Assembly: GCA_046757025.1 (NCBI GenBank)
Contig: JBHHXN010000010.1
Coordinates: 1 to 64,000, forward strand
Origin: a bacterium
GTDB taxonomy: Bacteria > Zhuqueibacterota > Zhuqueibacteria > Oceanimicrobiales > Oceanimicrobiaceae
DNA length: 64,000 bases
Direction of reading: 5' to 3'
Under the pieces are notes generated by a model that did no database searches, was not told where the DNA came from, and was given only the letters and a program-made list of their open reading frames with translations. A program made the position numbers and the translations under genes. The stretch's first letter is position 1. Each line of letters opens with the position of its first letter. This document shows positions 51,232 through 64,000 of the stretch, in pieces.

Positions 51232-53826
51232 TTAAACTTTTGTCATCTGAATGATCAACAAAGTGTAATCATCTACCCGCGCCTCACCTTGATAGAAAGA
51301 TTCTATTTCTTCGGTAAGAGAGACTAATATTTCGTCGGCACTTTTACCGCGCAGCGCTTGTAAACTTTCCCTGAATCGGTCCTCACCAAAAAACTGCATG
51401 CCCTCCTCGGAGGGATTCGTGCGGGCGGCTTCAATCACGCCATCAGTGTAAAATATGATCGAATCCCCTTCTCCCAACAGTATCGTCCCTTCTTCCAGAT
51501 TTTTTTCAAACAAATCCCCAATTCGTTCCAGTCCGATTCCCAAACCGTTAAAACCGATTTCACGGATTTCTCCACGCTTGCGCCCAGGCAAATGAACGGG
51601 CAAGGTGTGCCCCGCACGAACAAATTTAACGGTTTTGGCACGAGTATCGAGCACCCCCACAATCGCCGTCACAAATACTTGCCGGTCCACACGTGAACTG
51701 GAAAAATATTGATTCAACCGCAGCACCACCTCTCTTGGATTTTCCGTAAATTGCGGAGAGTAGCGAATGAGACTGATACACTGGGCCATATAAAACGCCG
51801 CCGAAGTGCCCTTGCCGGAAACGTCGCCAATAGTAAACAGATACTTATCTTCACTCAAAGGCAAAATATCGTAAAAATCTCCCCCCACCTCGTTGGCCGT
51901 CTCGAGGGTGGCGGCAATCTGAAAGCCGCGTATTTCGGGTAAATTGCGGGGAAGCAAATCGAGTTGCACTTGCCGGGCAATGGTCAGCTCGTGTGCCAGA
52001 CGCTCTTTTTCTCGCGCCTCGGCGATGGAGTCTTTCAATTTGTCCCCCATCTGGTTGAACCGCTCCGCAAATTCCACAAACTCATCGTTTCCCTCCAATT
52101 TGACTTTGTAATCCAAATTGCCGGTGGAAATTTCACGAATACCAACTTTCAATTGATTTACTTTATGCACAATTATTTGGTTAATCTCCGAGCCAAATTT
52201 TATCATACGACGGGTGACGAGAAGATTAACCAGCGCATAAATTCCTAACAATAACAAAAAGTAACTAATTAACGCGGTGGAAAAAAAGGCTATATTGGGA
52301 ATGGCTAAAATATCAAACGCAAAATACCCTTGTGGCTGGAACTTCGCATCCATTAGCGGACTGATCACTCTTCCGATGGTAAAACGATTGTTCCCGGCAA
52401 GGATGCGATTTATCTTTGTTACCCACTCCGCCTGGCTCACTTCCGACTCGCCAAATGGTACCGCCAAGGATGAGTAAGCCGTGTGGGGGGTCAAGCCAAA
52501 TGGGAAAATGCGAAAATGATGCTTGGCGATCCTATTCGACAATTTATAAAAATAAGATTCCCACTGAGACGGATGGTAAGGGTAAGCAAACAGATACGAG
52601 CCGGCCAAAATCGAGGTGTTTTCAGAAACCGTCCGGAGAAAATGGCTGTCCAGTTTCACAAAATAAACTAATTCTTCCTCAATTTCAGGCGATTTAAAAA
52701 ACAACAAAAAAGCTTCCTTTTCCTCATTTAGGTCTTCCCGGGGTTGCTTTATTTCCACAATGCCCATATCTGGAATATTTTCGGTTAGCTGGACGGGCTC
52801 GTAGCCTTTAATCTGTAAAACAGTGGAAGATTGATTGGCTGGTAAAATAAATAGATCCAAGCTCCTTTCCACTTCACCATAAGCAATTTTTTCACACTGT
52901 TCCAGGACTGTGTTACGCATTTTATCCGCTTGCAGCCCGGCAACGAGAAAATAAAAAATCAACAGCAGCATGATTAGTTGAATAAACTGCGGAAAAGTTG
53001 ATTGAAACAATCCCGCAATTTTCAATTTACGGGAAAGACGGGCGAAATTATAGATGAGCACGACGGGAATTTTAACCAGCAGCGCAATCAGATATATTTT
53101 AAATGACAAATAAATAAACCTTGGTAGTCCATACCAGACTATAGATGCATTCAAGCCGTGAATTTCACTGGATTGAAAGGGATTCAGTCCGGAAAAATAT
53201 TTGAGTAAAATATAAACCGCAATTAAGTAAATCCAGCATTCAACGCGGGTCAATTCTTCTAACCATGCCGTTTTTTTCAACAGAAAAATAAATAGAATAA
53301 CCTGACAAATAAACACGTAAAAAAGGCTTTCACTGTAAAACACATTTATGGTTAATATTCCCAAAAGAATAAATGAAATCAAAACGCCTTTTTTTCCCTG
53401 GCTGTTTTGTACCAATATCAAACTAAAAATCAAAGTTAAAAAAGCTAACAGCAAATTTTGTATGATTTTAATTAATAAGCTGGAATGGTTAATTAAACCC
53501 CAACCGCTGGCGGACGTCGAATTGACCGATTTTAACACCAGTGATTCAATTAAAAAGCAAAAAAAGAATAAGATTATTAGCAATTCATTGGGAGGAGCAA
53601 GTGGAAGGAGTTTTTCGGAAATTAATTTAATCCAAAAAAAGATTAAAACGCCCAGAAAGATCAAACTAAAATTGGACGACAGAAGATCAAAAGAAAAGAC
53701 GACAGCAAATAAAAAGAAGCAACCGATTAAATAAAATAGAAACCCTCTATTCAATACGTCCTTCGATCTAACACTCTGGATAAATTGACCAATCCTTGCA
53801 CCAACCTGAAAATGAGTATCTGGCAT
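51232..53826 (-). CDS. Membrane protein with HAMP and SpoIIE/PP2C phosphatase domains
   Basis: DEF..FAERFNQM HAMP; VGGDFYD, GDVSGKG, YTDG, DDYT motifs; multiple N-terminal TMs. Confidence 0.93.
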   Translation of the reverse strand: MPDTHFQVGARIGQFIQSVRSKDVLNRGFLFYLIGCFFLFAVVFSFDLLSSNFSLIFLGVLIFFWIKLISEKLLPLAPPNELLIILFFFCFLIESLVLKSVNSTSASGWGLINHSSLLIKIIQNLLLAFLTLIFSLILVQNSQGKKGVLISFILLGILTINVFYSESLFYVFICQVILFIFLLKKTAWLEELTRVECWIYLIAVYILLKYFSGLNPFQSSEIHGLNASIVWYGLPRFIYLSFKIYLIALLVKIPVVLIYNFARLSRKLKIAGLFQSTFPQFIQLIMLLLIFYFLVAGLQADKMRNTVLEQCEKIAYGEVERSLDLFILPANQSSTVLQIKGYEPVQLTENIPDMGIVEIKQPREDLNEEKEAFLLFFKSPEIEEELVYFVKLDSHFLRTVSENTSILAGSYLFAYPYHPSQWESYFYKLSNRIAKHHFRIFPFGLTPHTAYSSLAVPFGESEVSQAEWVTKINRILAGNNRFTIGRVISPLMDAKFQPQGYFAFDILAIPNIAFFSTALISYFLLLLGIYALVNLLVTRRMIKFGSEINQIIVHKVNQLKVGIREISTGNLDYKVKLEGNDEFVEFAERFNQMGDKLKDSIAEAREKERLAHELTIARQVQLDLLPRNLPEIRGFQIAATLETANEVGGDFYDILPLSEDKYLFTIGDVSGKGTSAAFYMAQCISLIRYSPQFTENPREVVLRLNQYFSSSRVDRQVFVTAIVGVLDTRAKTVKFVRAGHTLPVHLPGRKRGEIREIGFNGLGIGLERIGDLFEKNLEEGTILLGEGDSIIFYTDGVIEAARTNPSEEGMQFFGEDRFRESLQALRGKSADEILVSLTEEIESFYQGEARVDDYTLLIIQMTKV

Positions 53827-54011
53827 AGCGGGATTCGATTTATATTAAATTACCTGTTTGAATTAATTTACCACCATTGTACAATTTTTACAAGGAAGGA
53901 TTTGTGGATTCCCAACACTGGTAGAAGATTAATCCGGCATCTAAGCACTCAGCTATCACATTGAATTTGAGCTTGATCGCAATTTATTGAGATAGTTATT
54001 TTACCGGGGCG

Positions 54012-56450
54012 CTACAAAACTTTGATGACTACCATCGTCATATCGTCGTGCTGTGGATGATTTCCCACAAATTGATTCACTGCTCGCACCACTTTTTGAA
54101 TAATGACGTTGGCGGAAAAATCTTTGTTTTGCGAAATAGTCGAAATCAATCGATCTTCCCCATATTCGTCGCCGTTTTTAGTGGTGGCCTCCGTGAAGCC
54201 GTCGGTGTAAAAAGTCAGGACGTCGCCGCTTACTAATTGAATTTCGTGCTCTTCCAGAAAGCTGTAAAACTTTTCGCCCTTCTCAAGCCCCACCGCAATG
54301 CCTTTTGGTTCCAGCAATCTATTTGAATCACTGCCGCGCTGAGCTAAAATTGCCGGATTGTGTCCGGCCCTGGAAAATCGGATGGTGTGCTGCTCCATAT
54401 CGATGACTGCGTAAAACATACTCACAAATGTGTTGCGCTCGATATTGTCGTACATTTGCCAGTTTAATTTATTTAACACTTCTTTTGGCGAAACCACCTC
54501 GCCGGCGTGGGATTGTAAAATGCCTTTGGTCAACGTCATATAAATGGCCGCTGGAACGCCTTTGCCAGAGACATCGCCGATGGCAATGCCGAATTTTCCG
54601 TTTCCCAAATGGAAAAAATCGTAATAGTCGCCGCCAACCTCCAGGGCGGGAATGCAGATGCCGGCGATGTCATATCCTTCAATCAGTGGATTTTTTTTGG
54701 GTAGCAGACTCATTTGCACATTGCGAGCAATCTCCAGCTCCTGTGCCATGCGCTCCCGTTCGGAGATGCGGCGGATATGTGATGGAGTCAATTCCGGCGT
54801 AAATTCAACTTTGTCTTTTTTAATATAGCCAATCACCGCCAAAACAAGTGGAACACTCAACATTCCCAGGAACAACAGACTATGAAAATGATGAAATGGC
54901 GAACTTGCTGCCAGTATGGGGACGGCATAAGTCAAAGCTAAAACCACAAAATTGGCAAAGATAGCTGTTAACAAATCGTATTTTACCAAAATCCATCCTA
55001 ACCCCACACTGATCAAAAAATATAGTGGGAAAAGTAAAGCAAAGTGGATAAAGCCTAAAGGAAAATCCCACAAAATAAATGCCACCAGCATCCACAGAAA
55101 GGAAGACACAAGAATGCCAGGCCAGGTCTTTTTTGTTTTTTCTCGTAACCATGAAATAAAAAATAAACGGAACACAATTTCATTGAGTATGGCCACACGC
55201 AGAGCTAAAAAAATCGCGCTTACGGATGGAGAAAATGATTCCGGTACGCCGTTTAATAACGGAATGGTGTACAAACCAAAATTCATCTGAGATGCGACTA
55301 TGGCAGCGGTACCGTAAACCAATCCCAGGAAAAGCAATCCAAATGAATAGCCGCGGGTTACCGCGTTGGCCAATTCCAGGGTAAACGGTTTTCTTTGAAT
55401 CAAGCCGTCCACGGCTTTTAGTACTTTGTTCCAGCCCCGGCGAGCAGAAGACTCGCCAACACTCCAGGCGGCAAACACCATGGCCGCCAGAAACGCTTGC
55501 ACAATGAACACCGAAATGACGAAGAAGATGATTCTTACGTTGAAGCGATTCACATCTCCAATGGTAGAGCCATATCCAATCGTCGTAAATTTCAACATAT
55601 ATTCGAGCAAAATGAATGCAAATAAAATGACAAAAACACCTATGGCAGTTCTAATGCCGACTTCCCCTTCATGGTATTTTTTTAGAAATAAGGCAATCAC
55701 AAAAACCAAAAGCACAAATGTGGCGATGGAAGAGGCTGTGATTATAAACGTGACGTAGGTTTCCACTTTACTGCCTGCGCTGCGAAAGGCTTGGGGAGCT
55801 TGAAGATCATATCGGAAACCACCGATTTTATCTCCCTGCACCCTCACCCAATATTTAGGCACCATGTTGAAAACTGAATCTTTTCGAGTCCATTTGAAAA
55901 AGAAATCCCTGCGATTGATATGCTGATTAGCAGTCGAGCTTTCCAGCTCAAACCTATCAATGTCCAGCCCTTTTTCAATTAAGAAATTTTGTGCAATGTT
56001 TTTTGCCTCGTCTTCTTCAATTGAGTTCATGATAACCGTATCCGGCAAAATATGTGTAAAACCCAGAAATTGGCCGGTGGGAGAAATCCAGACCCTGAAT
56101 CGATGTCGCATCTGGCTGGGGGCCTGTTTTCTGTTGAAAAAATAGATGTTCCAGTAGTGTGCCGAAAGGGTGTCCGCACGCAGAATTTTGTTGGCGGTTA
56201 CCAAACCTAACTCATTTTGAAGATAAAAAGCAATTCCGGAATCAAAAGTAAAATTGGCGTCGGCGTCCTGCTTCGCTGTTTGATAATCGAGCTCGGCAAG
56301 ATATTCTCGGGCAAGTTTGATCACTTCTTTGCGGGTTAATATTAAATCCATTGAGGCCAACGGAGAATAATTATCAAAAAGATAAAAAAATACTCCTCCA
56401 CCAACAACGCCAAGGAGAACAATGACAATCAACGACTTCAGATTCGACAT
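54012..56450 (-). CDS. Membrane protein with extracytoplasmic domain, CPBP/Abi-like TM bundle and SpoIIE/PP2C phosphatase
   Basis: VGGDYYD, GDVSGKG, YTDG, DDMT motifs; NEIVFR in the TM region. Confidence 0.92.
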   Translation of the reverse strand: MSNLKSLIVIVLLGVVGGGVFFYLFDNYSPLASMDLILTRKEVIKLAREYLAELDYQTAKQDADANFTFDSGIAFYLQNELGLVTANKILRADTLSAHYWNIYFFNRKQAPSQMRHRFRVWISPTGQFLGFTHILPDTVIMNSIEEDEAKNIAQNFLIEKGLDIDRFELESSTANQHINRRDFFFKWTRKDSVFNMVPKYWVRVQGDKIGGFRYDLQAPQAFRSAGSKVETYVTFIITASSIATFVLLVFVIALFLKKYHEGEVGIRTAIGVFVILFAFILLEYMLKFTTIGYGSTIGDVNRFNVRIIFFVISVFIVQAFLAAMVFAAWSVGESSARRGWNKVLKAVDGLIQRKPFTLELANAVTRGYSFGLLFLGLVYGTAAIVASQMNFGLYTIPLLNGVPESFSPSVSAIFLALRVAILNEIVFRLFFISWLREKTKKTWPGILVSSFLWMLVAFILWDFPLGFIHFALLFPLYFLISVGLGWILVKYDLLTAIFANFVVLALTYAVPILAASSPFHHFHSLLFLGMLSVPLVLAVIGYIKKDKVEFTPELTPSHIRRISERERMAQELEIARNVQMSLLPKKNPLIEGYDIAGICIPALEVGGDYYDFFHLGNGKFGIAIGDVSGKGVPAAIYMTLTKGILQSHAGEVVSPKEVLNKLNWQMYDNIERNTFVSMFYAVIDMEQHTIRFSRAGHNPAILAQRGSDSNRLLEPKGIAVGLEKGEKFYSFLEEHEIQLVSGDVLTFYTDGFTEATTKNGDEYGEDRLISTISQNKDFSANVIIQKVVRAVNQFVGNHPQHDDMTMVVIKVL

Positions 56451-60780: not shown

Positions 60781-60813
60781 TGGTACGGCACTACCCGAAT
60801 CGTGGTCTATTTA

Positions 60814-60945
60814 GTGATTGACCGAAAACAGCTTTTTCATGTCATTCCTGCAAGTTTTTAGCCGGAATCTCTTGCCTGAAATGAGGAGATTCCAGCACAA
60901 AAGATCGCTGGAATGACATAAAGAATCGAGTTTTCGGTCAATCAC
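60814..60945. mobile_element. Element with family-A ends and an unrelated REP-doublet cargo
   Basis: Perfect 16-bp TIR gtgattgaccgaaaac / gttttcggtcaatcac; perfect 6-bp TSD tattta; internal gtcattcc...ggaatct and agattcc...ggaatgac. Confidence 0.92.
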
Positions 60946-61053
60946 TATTTAGGAAAATTAAAATGGATTAGTAACTTAAATGTGAATTACTCGGTACGGA
61001 AGGGACGTTCAAACGAATTCTAATCAAATATCAGTTGATAAATAAATTTCATT

Positions 61054-61761
61054 TTATCTGGTTACTTTACCAAAATCCTGATTCTGGAAAAAAAACATTC
61101 TTTTCTTTTTCGAATCGAGATTAAGCTGTTTTAAATATTTGCGCATTTCGAACCAACCGAGTTTGATATTTCCAAAACGCGAGGTGTTTAGTTTTTTAAT
61201 TATTTGAAACATACTTGAATCCGGATTTTCAATGATGATTCGTTTCAACTTTTCTTCGATTGTTTCCAATTGCGGTTCGGATTTATTGTCTGCTTGCTGC
61301 TCCAACTCAACTACATTGGTTTCTGATTGGGGAGCCACTTGAGTATTTTCCGTGGACTGCGTTTCCTCATGCATCGACGGATGCATGATTGCTGCCGGCG
61401 CTTTCTCCTGCGAAAAGTCAGCAATGGCCTCATCCAATGAATCAAAAGCCTTTAGAATGTAATGAAACTCCAGCAATTCAAACACTTCATAAACATCAGG
61501 AATCATTCGCACCAATTTTAAATCGCCTTTGTTTTCTCGAATGCCTTTGATTTCACTAATGAAAATACCCCAGCCAGCGCTGCTGATGTAATCGACATTT
61601 CCTAAATCTATTATGATATTGTAACTATTGGACCTCAGTACAGAATTCAATGCATGTTCAAGTTCAGCAGAAGTGGTCGTATCAATATAACCACCGACTT
61701 TGATTACCGAGATATTTTGTTTTTCACCAGCTTTTTCGACGGACACTTGAATGCCTTCCAT
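61054..61761 (-). CDS. STAS anti-sigma antagonist with linker and C-terminal HTH-like module
   Basis: DLGNVDYISSAGWG STAS motif; about 60-aa basic helical C-terminal domain. Confidence 0.9.
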   Translation of the reverse strand: MEGIQVSVEKAGEKQNISVIKVGGYIDTTTSAELEHALNSVLRSNSYNIIIDLGNVDYISSAGWGIFISEIKGIRENKGDLKLVRMIPDVYEVFELLEFHYILKAFDSLDEAIADFSQEKAPAAIMHPSMHEETQSTENTQVAPQSETNVVELEQQADNKSEPQLETIEEKLKRIIIENPDSSMFQIIKKLNTSRFGNIKLGWFEMRKYLKQLNLDSKKKRMFFFQNQDFGKVTR

Positions 61762-61810
61762 GGATGGCTCCTACTCTTTTATTTCAACTGAATTCAAAAA
61801 TAACGGATAA

Positions 61811-61839
61811 AATATACGTGAAATCGAATTAAAAGTCAA
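61811..61839 (-). promoter_or_regulatory. Sigma70-type promoter for the STAS gene
   Basis: TTGACT-N17-TATATT on the minus strand. Confidence 0.65.
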
Positions 61840-61907
61840 TAGAAAGTAATCGTTTACCCACGCTACTATTTTCATGGGTTGATTTACTCATTCAATCCAA
61901 AATAGAG

Positions 61908-64000
61908 TTATATCATTTGCAAAGCTCTTTCGATCTTTTCCTTGACGTCAACTCTTTCGGGGTTTAATTCCAAAACTTTTTCCCACTCGCGGATCGCCAA
62001 TTTATAATCACCCCGATTAGCGTAAATCACTCCCAAATTTTCATAGGCCGCAATATCAGCGGGATCAATCCGTTTCACCAGTTTATACGATTCAGCGGCA
62101 TCCTCGTACATCTGATTGCGGAAATACGCGTTTCCCAGAATACTGTGCGCTTCTTTGTAGTCCGGATAAATTTCAACGATTTTTTTGAATTCGTCGATGG
62201 CTTTTTCGTAGTCTTTTTCTTTGTAGTATTTAATGCCCGGAATCAGAATTTTCTCCTTTTCACTGGCGTCAGGATATCGGGCTTCGCGCATGCCAGGGGC
62301 GCCCGCGGCTTCTAACTTTTTCTTCCTTTTACGCTTAAATTTCGAAACGAGGCCGTCACGCTCGTGGTGCTCAGAATGGCTTCCAGATTCTCTATTTTCA
62401 ACGCCGTTGCTATTACCAGATTTGAAATCATTTTTTTCTTTTTTATCGGACACATAGACAATTTCTTCATCGATGCTTTGAATTAAATCCGAAAAAGAAA
62501 CAGTGTCTTCCTTGTTATTGCTGTCGCTCGACTCTTCAGCCAAAAGTTCGTCGATAGAAGGAATCGTGAGATCGTCTTCTCCTTCTTTACTCCCTAATTC
62601 TGAATATTGCGCTTTTTCTTTTTTCTCATCTTCCACAGCGCTTTGTGAATCATCGGGCTGAGACGGTTCATCTTTTGGTCGAAATGGATCCGGTAGTTCA
62701 ACCGTTTGGGTCTCTTCATCCGAATTGGTGCTTATGACAATGGGTTGTTCATCTTCATCGTCGTCAAAGTCCTGATCCTCTAAATTGCTTTGACCTCCAA
62801 AAAGCTCCTCAAATGAAAATTCATCGGTTAAAGATGATTCTAAAGATTGGTTTTCAAAATAATCCACCGCAGATTCATCCTTCTCAAATGTCCCGCTTTC
62901 TGAAATATCCGCATCCTCATTTAATTCAGTAACCGAGGCATGATCCTCAATTGATGAAATAGCTTCAATTTGCGAATGGGGTGGGACTTCTGATTTGATT
63001 TCTTCACCTTCAACATCGCTTTCTGAAAAATCGTCATCTGTCTCCACGGCGTGCTCTTTTGCGAGTATTTCATCAATTGGTACGTCGAAACGTAAATCAG
63101 AATCTTCATCGATTTGGATGTGGCTGGCATCGTCCACCACACTTTCCTCCCCGGCCGTCTCCACACCGCCGTCAGTTAGCTTCTTCTCGTCTTCGCTTTG
63201 ATCTTTCGATCGCTTTTGCGTGGTTATTCTGGTGCGCGGTTCGGTTGAAATGGTAAAATCTATAGGTTCTTTATGGTCAATAATAATTTTACCATCAAGA
63301 GTCATCATCGGCGTACCAGGTGGTTTTAATTTTCGGTTACTTTTCTTAATTTTTGATATATAAGCTTCTCTGAGCTGCCTGGTATTCAGCCGACTTCTCA
63401 CTAGCTCATCATAAATTTTGCTCTCGCTGATTTCTGTAAAATTATATCTTTCTGTTTTTAGCTCGTCGCTGATTCTACTGGCGCCGTATTCCGGGTGTTT
63501 GGCAATGATATCAAATATTTTGGTTTTTTCTTCCACGCTTAAATGCTTGGCTTCTACCGACACATCTTCATTGATTTCGAACGAATCCATGCCTTCTTCT
63601 TCAAACACTTTTTTGTATTTGCTGTAATAAGCATAGGTCGTTAAATTTACGGTTTCACAAGCTTCGCGAATGCTGCTTCCTTCCAAAATCATTTTGTGAG
63701 CTTCTTTGGCTCTTCGCAATTCATCTTCTTCACGCGTGGACTTTTCCTTGATTGCCACCAGCGAAATGTCATCGTATTGGGGGTTACCTTCGGTGAATGA
63801 ATGAATTCCCAATTTCAATTGTTCAACAAATTCATTGACATCCAGGTGGCCATGACGGCGTAATAAATCAAGCAACCGCTCCTCACCGAGTAGCTCGCGG
63901 TTTGAATTCATGGCTTCGGTGATGCCGTCGGTGTACACCAGCAGAATATCATCTTTGGTCAGTTGAATGGTTTCAGAATCAATAGACTTTCTAAATAAAT
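61908..64000 (-). CDS. SpoIIE/PP2C phosphatase fused to HTH module, acidic linker and TPRs (5' end outside the window)
   Basis: Frame is open to the window edge; YTDGITEA...DDIS PP2C end; D/E-rich tract; three to four C-terminal TPRs. Confidence 0.9.
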   Translation of the reverse strand, partial: LFRKSIDSETIQLTKDDILLVYTDGITEAMNSNRELLGEERLLDLLRRHGHLDVNEFVEQLKLGIHSFTEGNPQYDDISLVAIKEKSTREEDELRRAKEAHKMILEGSSIREACETVNLTTYAYYSKYKKVFEEEGMDSFEINEDVSVEAKHLSVEEKTKIFDIIAKHPEYGASRISDELKTERYNFTEISESKIYDELVRSRLNTRQLREAYISKIKKSNRKLKPPGTPMMTLDGKIIIDHKEPIDFTISTEPRTRITTQKRSKDQSEDEKKLTDGGVETAGEESVVDDASHIQIDEDSDLRFDVPIDEILAKEHAVETDDDFSESDVEGEEIKSEVPPHSQIEAISSIEDHASVTELNEDADISESGTFEKDESAVDYFENQSLESSLTDEFSFEELFGGQSNLEDQDFDDDEDEQPIVISTNSDEETQTVELPDPFRPKDEPSQPDDSQSAVEDEKKEKAQYSELGSKEGEDDLTIPSIDELLAEESSDSNNKEDTVSFSDLIQSIDEEIVYVSDKKEKNDFKSGNSNGVENRESGSHSEHHERDGLVSKFKRKRKKKLEAAGAPGMREARYPDASEKEKILIPGIKYYKEKDYEKAIDEFKKIVEIYPDYKEAHSILGNAYFRNQMYEDAAESYKLVKRIDPADIAAYENLGVIYANRGDYKLAIREWEKVLELNPERVDVKEKIERALQMI

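Follow-up and report, generated by a model that had tools for sequence, protein, structure and literature searches.

In Vibrio fischeri, SypE combines an N-terminal serine kinase and a C-terminal PP2C phosphatase in one chain that acts on a STAS protein, and a central receiver (REC) domain places it under phosphorelay control (PMC3610818). SypA is a single STAS domain encoded by the first gene of a polysaccharide locus (PMC4517449). CapS is an experimentally shown repressor made of a STAS and a helix–turn–helix (HTH) domain, and is switched by the RsbW-type kinase CapK (Chambers et al., EMBO J 2026, PMC13373217). The soluble CapK, of HTH-STAS-GHKL architecture, responds to single-stranded DNA as its activator and contains no phosphatase; in CapS the STAS domain is followed by a packed winged HTH (ArsR/MarR-like), and a palindromic operator lies in the protein's own promoter; CapKS genes accompany immune operons at a few hundred loci (PMC13373217). 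In Anabaena, HenR, All4160 and Alr3423 exert a sigma-free, partner-switch-like control of exopolysaccharide (EPS) (bioRxiv 10.64898/2026.04.08.717354). Here we describe a pair of genes at the end of a 64,000-nucleotide stretch of the genome of a bacterium of the Zhuqueibacterota (the window; the first 64 kb of the 67,988-bp contig JBHHXN010000010.1, here C10), encoding a membrane kinase/phosphatase, hereafter the sensor, and an adjacent STAS protein, STAS-A, which share an HTH module. The system works like SypE/SypA and CapK/CapS and is a member of neither; no description of it was found in targeted searches of the open-access literature.

The evidence supports an HTH module related to IS481, fixed and not mobile, that is shared by the two members of a conserved partner-switch pair. 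A preliminary description made from the letters of the window had proposed a shared module on the two proteins, and the stretches that it quoted are indeed present on the reverse strand. Pairwise BLASTP of the sensor segment against the STAS tail of this genome gives nothing significant (E 9.6), and the homology is therefore visible at profile level only. Profiles were built from 80 related loci, the best of 561 relatives found in a scan of species genomes, to which the locus counts below refer. Comparison with hhalign of those of the STAS tail and of the second HTH of the sensor (HTH2) gives a 59-column alignment (probability 99.2, E 2.9e-19), so that the tail is a homologue of the second half of the sensor module, as had been suspected. 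The STAS-tail profile, which includes the sequence of this genome, finds the sensor HTH2 at E 4e-13 among 51,461 open reading frames (ORFs) of the same genome. AlphaFold2 folds both segments as HTHs, the sensor module being modelled as two three-helix HTHs plus a fourth helix (mean pLDDT, the predicted local distance difference test, 87).

IS481 elements encode a transposase with a DDE core, have terminal repeats and are mobile (PMC10045372). The sensor module shares with the N-terminus of their transposases (NF033577; Pfam HTH_28/HTH_32) the order and the spacing of its two HTHs; unlike IS481 it has no DDE core, no terminal repeats, a single fixed copy and diverged recognition residues. The NCBIfam IS481 model (NF033577) covers the sensor family only at about positions 1-126 of 284, with an E-value of 1e-6 on this sensor and down to 3e-19 in a relative, and no DDE core follows where that match ends. 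In the reverse direction, the sensor profile recovers a genuine IS481, one that passes the family cut-off, with a match that spans both HTHs (E 8e-13 on a nominal 1000 sequences). HTH_32 is matched by 68 of 75 sensor modules and HTH_28 by 60 of 75 (E<=0.1), HTH_21 is matched by 26 of 58 STAS tails, and the Pfam matches of the tails are to the transposase families HTH_21/Tc3_2; in the sensor of this genome, weak HTH_32/HTH_21 matches lie between SpoIIE and the C-terminal repeats. Of the IS481/IS3-type likeness first noticed, the IS481 N-terminus and the missing core have thus been retained, and the kinship found is to IS481. Structural comparisons are less specific: a PDB sequence search with the module profile returned nothing under E 0.01, Foldseek matches are led by the bipartite DNA-binding domains of TnsB, Pax5/6/8 and Tc3 and are weak (E 0.7-3.1), and VIA-align yields weak generic HTH matches (Z 5.6 for the bipartite set, all <=5.7).

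The fusion and the pairing are conserved. The best 80 loci are labelled KSB1 (the closest, 79%), Calditrichota, Zixibacteria, Eisenbacteria, FCPU426, Spirochaetota and others, and 79 of them have the HTH on the PP2C ORF. Kinase, PP2C and HTH stand in one ORF in 68/80, most of the others being split or cut by contig ends. A STAS gene is present in 69 loci, with a tail in 59, split by frameshifts in two and truly tail-less in eight. Within the phylum itself 150 of 151 genomes contain the module, as do 105 of the 105 of good quality, mostly with three matches each; the three usual carriers are the sensor and two STAS paralogues, A and B. This genome encodes 28 PP2C, 16 STAS and 9 RsbW-type proteins, and the module is carried by one of the PP2C proteins (the sensor) and two of the STAS proteins, the adjacent STAS-A and STAS-B on contig C1. 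Homology to IS481 N-termini might also mark a functionless remnant of an insertion, a reading that is extremely improbable given a module in frame, at the same position and conserved to this degree in several phyla, with neither DDE core nor terminal repeats. A mobile element or pseudogene was rejected; no inverted repeats flank the module and no integrase match was found in the sensor with Pfam.

The large ORF of the sensor is open from the window edge downwards and extends 1.7 kb past it. Along its 1262 residues Pfam recognises HATPase_c_2 (12-137, E 2e-30), HAMP (344-386), SpoIIE (455-650) and tetratricopeptide repeats (TPRs; 1146-1256), and hydropathy places two transmembrane helices near residues 163 and 331, with a periplasmic domain between them. 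The order is thus RsbW-type kinase, transmembrane helix, periplasmic domain, transmembrane helix, HAMP, PP2C, two-HTH module (residues 658-786), acidic linker and TPRs. The kinase domain, both transmembrane helices, the periplasmic domain, HAMP and the start of PP2C lie outside the window. Hence the protein described earlier as a phosphatase alone also carries a kinase. The N and G boxes of the kinase are intact in the homologues (E49, N53, G85 and G111 each 72/72; D83 71/72), and the PP2C metal-binding residues D446, D464, D590 and D643 are invariant (76/76 to 81/81). Kinase and PP2C in one polypeptide recall SypE; unlike SypE, the centre of the protein is a transmembrane-periplasmic-transmembrane-HAMP unit followed by the two-HTH module, and no REC match was obtained at E<=1. 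Acidic linker and TPRs, first counted among the parts of the system, turned out to be lineage-specific extras and were rejected as core parts.

Upstream of the sensor gene, a TPR-containing member of the PorV/PorQ family is encoded (over the NF033709 cut-off), preceded by the last 78 codons of a cargo gene whose type IX secretion system (T9SS) sorting domain was judged by eye. The start of this gene most probably lies at one extremity of contig C2, the join of the two contigs being inferred. The genome encodes the T9SS core (SprA over cut-off) and 150 scored C-terminal sorting domains. Neither the kinase domain nor the cargo and PorV genes nor the second STAS-HTH paralogue, all outside the window, figured in the preliminary description.

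STAS-A (235 residues) adjoins the sensor gene. Its STAS domain matches SpoIIAA/RsbV structures in fold, and Ser61, which we take from knowledge of the STAS family to be the phospho-acceptor position, is invariant in 70/70 homologues. In the AlphaFold2 model the STAS fold is followed by a disordered linker of about 45 residues and a four-helix tail, with no beta wing and no tail strand. The tails of the two paralogues have net charges of +7.7 and +10.6, compared with +6.8 for IS481. Like CapK/CapS, the system sets a STAS protein with a C-terminal domain of DNA-binding type beside an HTH-bearing kinase of anti-sigma type, and would likewise need no sigma factor. It differs from CapS by a wingless IS481-type HTH on a disordered linker, and from CapK by a sensor that is a membrane kinase with PP2C in a phylum-core envelope locus. 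It differs from SypA by the HTH tail, the two paralogues and a T9SS cargo/PorV context that is specific to this system, and from the HenR system by a kinase and a phosphatase that are there separate and by an output that is there the regulation of a biosynthetic enzyme and not an HTH.

Table 1. Coordinates of the features of the sensor/STAS-A locus in the window.
Feature	Position	Strand	Remarks
Kinase/phosphatase (sensor) gene, 3' part	61908..64000	-	full ORF 1262 aa, contig C10:61908-65696
SpoIIE/PP2C domain, C-terminal part (aa 455-650)	63747..64000	-	PF07228, E 4e-49
Two-HTH module	63339..63725	-	
HTH1 of bipartite IS481-type module	63585..63725	-	without the S-R arginine of transposase-type recognition helices
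HTH2 and fourth helix	63339..63539	-	homologue of the STAS tail
Conserved K-x-P-G-T-P-x-x-T-L-D-G motif behind module	63273..63329	-	KSB1/Calditrichota-type proteins
Acidic, poorly conserved linker	62442..63206	-	85 D/E, 15 K/R in 255 aa
Three C-terminal TPRs	61929..62261	-	in 23/80 related loci
Sigma70-type promoter of STAS-HTH gene	61811..61839	-	TTGACT-N17-TATATT; boxes conserved, spacer not
STAS-A gene	61054..61761	-	235 aa
STAS domain (aa 1-119)	61405..61761	-	TIGR00377 (anti-sigma-factor-antagonist) over cut-off
Basic four-helix HTH tail (aa 167-228)	61078..61263	-	profile homology, AlphaFold2

Our preferred reading, to which we give a probability of roughly 0.4, is a phosphorylation switch that controls the cell surface without a sigma factor. 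The inner-membrane kinase/phosphatase would set the phosphorylation of two STAS-HTH proteins, which are predicted to bind DNA by means of their IS481-related HTH. It builds on the anatomy, the catalytic motifs and the gene order, on sigma54 promoters at the sensor and STAS-B loci and on a palindrome that the two loci share. The periplasmic domain would read the state of the cargo/PorV-TPR complex, and the kinase and PP2C domains would act on Ser61 of the STAS-HTH proteins. Once unphosphorylated, these may dimerise through STAS, as CapS does, bind DNA with two single HTHs and tune adhesin and polysaccharide operons driven by sigma54 and an activator. The two-HTH module of the sensor, with its base-reading residues lost, could serve as a low-specificity DNA tether that brings the enzyme to its DNA-bound substrate. 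The precedent of CapS, a proven STAS-HTH repressor under the control of an RsbW-type kinase, speaks for this reading.

The gene order of T9SS cargo, PorV-TPR, sensor and STAS-HTH is fixed across phyla. A PorV gene is found in 63 and a large upstream gene family in 60 of the 80 loci, and the neighbours of the sensor are T9SS cargo, PorV, TPR, obg or EPS genes. For STAS-B, the best 30 loci were drawn from 61 genomes searched. In 30/30 the gene has a glgA-like gene on one side and a Poly_export/SLBB (wza) gene on the other, followed by a Wzc-type gene, so that, as with SypA, a STAS gene heads a polysaccharide export operon. Zixibacteria-type genomes merge both loci in the order cargo, PorV, sensor, ParA-family gene, STAS-HTH, GGDEF, wza and wzc. 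The ParA/MinD-family ATPase gene between sensor and STAS-HTH, then a GGDEF gene, was seen in ten loci (L048, L049, L052, L059, L062, L065, L068, L070, L072 and L077). A TPR protein of about 375 residues also accompanies the system; its gene immediately precedes the cargo operon in the phylum itself, comes directly after STAS in FCPU426-type loci and stands within the EPS cluster in Zixibacteria-type loci. Loci with this gene are L271:6773-7897 (the C2 end of this genome), L047, L050, L054, L067 and L072. Spirochaetota-labelled loci (L056, L066, L073, L079, L314) have the sensor and STAS-HTH without cargo or PorV nearby, and sometimes two flanking STAS-HTH genes.

A sigma54-type site precedes STAS-B in 24/30 loci (shuffles 0.2, maximum 2), and TGT-N11-ACA palindromes, usually paired, lie ahead of its operon in 23/30 (shuffles 2.5, maximum 8). 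With a matrix built without this genome, ten palindrome pairs were found in the genome compared with one to three in shuffles, seven of them near a sigma54 site. The pairs sit ahead of glycosyltransferases, a T9SS cargo and a gene that directly follows the one for a REC-AAA-Fis activator. For the cargo-PorV-sensor operon, a sigma54-type site was found in this genome and, by pattern, in 8 of 10 relatives, the G055 site being a candidate by pattern only. At the cargo operon the same palindrome, here single, closely follows the promoter on its downstream side in 5 of 9 (shuffles 0.13, maximum 2), a position that it takes at 2 of 162 sigma54-like sites genome-wide and that suggests repression. An upstream position at the cargo-operon promoters was also considered and was found in 1/8 only. 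The exact paired-site pattern matched 7 of 61 genomes and was too strict for a covariation test. We read the palindrome as a candidate site of the activator, which would link both loci into one circuit, and the REC-AAA-Fis protein probably governs EPS, glycosyltransferase and T9SS-cargo genes through TGT-N11-ACA sites as its regulon. This sigma54 activator is highly conserved (51/61 genomes at E<=1e-135). The corresponding positions in this genome are C15:50084 and C15:50195-51577 (L268), and the gene behind that of the activator encodes a 389-residue protein with no Pfam match.

Related modules occur outside the partner-switch pair. A search of 1.84 billion representatives gave 3887 matches at E<=0.001, and 52 of the best 150 carry two tandem modules. 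Scanning 47 carriers identified 31 family 2 glycosyltransferases (GT2), 12 proteins with HTHs only and 4 sensors, with an integrase core in none of the 47; one tandem carrier is annotated Patescibacteria. Patescibacteria-type metagenome loci (L193-L267) encode membrane GT2 synthases with two N-terminal module copies. The GT2 module profile matches the sensor module with a probability of 99.6. GT2 modules keep the S-R-x-x-F-Y helix (R in 98/104) and a conserved H-G-V-Q-N helix, and an operator-like motif occupies the -35/-10 spacer of the GT2 genes' own promoter in 30/41 (shuffles maximum 1). With recognition helices and an operator-like promoter motif preserved in this sister family, the module type is plausibly able to bind DNA specifically.

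Several observations weigh against the switch with a DNA output. None of 79 sensors has the arginine that the first recognition helix carries in 98/104 GT2 modules and 5/10 IS481, and the sensor HTH2 has variable base-reading positions and a low charge (+3.0). STAS tails carry W or F at the first turn of the recognition helix, with W in 46/59 STAS-A and F/W in 24/30 STAS-B at base-reading positions. When 16 STAS-A promoters were aligned, only the -35 and -10 boxes were conserved and no operator appeared; such bare promoters and the diverged base-reading residues cut against simple sequence-specific autoregulation. In addition, the palindrome tracks the activator: it is absent at 6 of the 30 STAS-B loci, whose genomes have an activator 61-66% identical or not found, while genomes of loci that keep it have one at least 69% identical (one not found), and it is seen again after the gene for the activator in 9 of the 16 loci, out of 30, that could be parsed. 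The six lineages without it still keep the STAS tail, and since the site follows the sigma54 activator, the palindrome cannot be taken as a sign that the HTH module binds DNA. A STAS without a tail is found in 8 of the 80 loci, and both the DNA and the phosphorylation steps of the switch are inferred from sequence. The direct DNA output first envisaged retains the basic tails and the operator-like motif of the sister family in its favour, and it is opposed by the diverged base-reading positions and by an adjacent STAS promoter at which no operator was found.

The same aromatic residues, together with an aromatic-basic last helix, would suit a post-transcriptional mode of action, in which the HTH is a protein- or membrane-binding effector and STAS-HTH acts on Wza/Wzc, a glycosyltransferase, a ParA-type ATPase or the sigma54 activator. 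STAS-B is co-transcribed with wza-wzc, the Zixibacteria-type STAS-HTH gene stands between the ParA-family gene and GGDEF-wza-wzc, and elsewhere the module is fused to a GT2 synthase. SypA is thought to act in this way by an unknown mechanism (PMC4517449) and All4160 acts on a fused enzyme (bioRxiv 10.64898/2026.04.08.717354). We consider this explanation possible but rather unlikely: the positive charge is strong, the HTH fold is intact and the modules of the GT2 sister family seem to recognise the promoter of their own genes. Furthermore, STAS, PP2C or RsbW genes accompany 0 of 75 GT2 loci, and the link to polysaccharide may therefore be coincidental.

The confinement of the module to three partners among so many PP2C, STAS and RsbW-type proteins raises another option, a docking or insulation device in which the sensor HTH2 pairs with the STAS tail and keeps the enzyme specific among paralogues. 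The recognition helix is acidic in the sensor and basic in STAS, and in a tree of HTH2 sequences the two are mutual nearest relatives, although without strong support (93/85). That tree has 99 rows and 69 columns (22 each from 79 sensor, 59 STAS-A, 30 STAS-B and 104 GT2 rows, plus 11 IS481) and is too short to name a root or a donor; it is from a transposase to the host that the module would have passed. HTH1 has no counterpart on STAS. In five genomes with a tail-less adjacent STAS, 0 of 40 STAS matches reach into the tail and the HTH2 profile finds only the sensor, with no STAS-sized carrier at strong E-values, and a sixth, spirochaete-labelled genome has the sensor copy only; the completeness of these genomes is not given. 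The persistence of the sensor HTH in six genomes that yielded no STAS-HTH implies a partner other than the STAS tail and weakens a docking-only role, including the dedicated docking domain proposed earlier, which now appears quite improbable. Complex prediction for sensor module and STAS tail scored 0.00, gave no verdict and was not used as evidence either way. In two tail-less genomes the sensor HTH2 is duplicated (L305/L307 of G152 and L306/L308 of G154), as if the tail had moved in cis.

The sensor kinase matches RsbW/SpoIIAB models at E 1e-22, below cut-off, which together with the SpoIIAA/RsbV-like STAS fold and the eight loci with a STAS-only version would fit a classical partner switch. 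There the kinase would be the anti-sigma factor of a sigma factor encoded at a distance, STAS its antagonist and the HTHs accessory, serving localisation. No recurring sigma-factor gene was seen among the neighbours, judged by eye and not by profile scan, distant sigma genes lying outside this look. Both linked operons have sigma54-type promoters and the tail is under strong constraint, and we regard a classical switch as improbable.

Capture of transposase DNA-binding domains by host proteins has eukaryotic precedents, among them the Pax paired domain, a bipartite HTH taken by the host from a DDE transposase. As in Pax, a bipartite transposase HTH would have been reused by the host, and Pax5/6/8 and Tc3 are among the top weak fold matches; unlike Pax, the module is bacterial, of IS481 type and fused to signalling enzymes and a membrane protein, which makes this an analogy and not family-level homology. 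An extended form of the switch, which we hold to be doubtful, would have a giant surface protein exported by the T9SS and a PorV-TPR barrel signal to a chromosome-tethered kinase/phosphatase with a domesticated, paired-like IS481 domain. This enzyme would flip the two STAS-HTH factors between adhesin and exopolysaccharide, with the capture paralleling that of Pax and repeated on the GT2 synthases of Patescibacteria.

Elsewhere in the window, two more membrane SpoIIE phosphatases are encoded in tandem (51232-56450), one with a Rce1-like CAAX-protease domain and both without the HTH module. Between the STAS gene and obg lies an element of about 140 bp with 23-bp terminal inverted repeats (60807-60952). 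It has 44 BLASTN matches in the genome, including one copy 100% identical and about a dozen near-full-length, and probably belongs to a family of miniature inverted-repeat transposable elements or of sequences resembling repetitive extragenic palindromes. No RNA entry is listed for this stretch.

If the switch is real, it would be a serine-phosphorylation counterpart of two-component systems, with a membrane kinase/phosphatase and a STAS-HTH 'response regulator', that belongs to the core of an entire phylum and also occurs in several more. It would tie type IX secretion to signalling and would provide a bacterial case of a transposase DNA-binding domain taken up by host signalling and polysaccharide proteins. 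STAS proteins of the SypA type control biofilm polysaccharide by an unknown route, and a version with the output domain attached makes this question directly testable.

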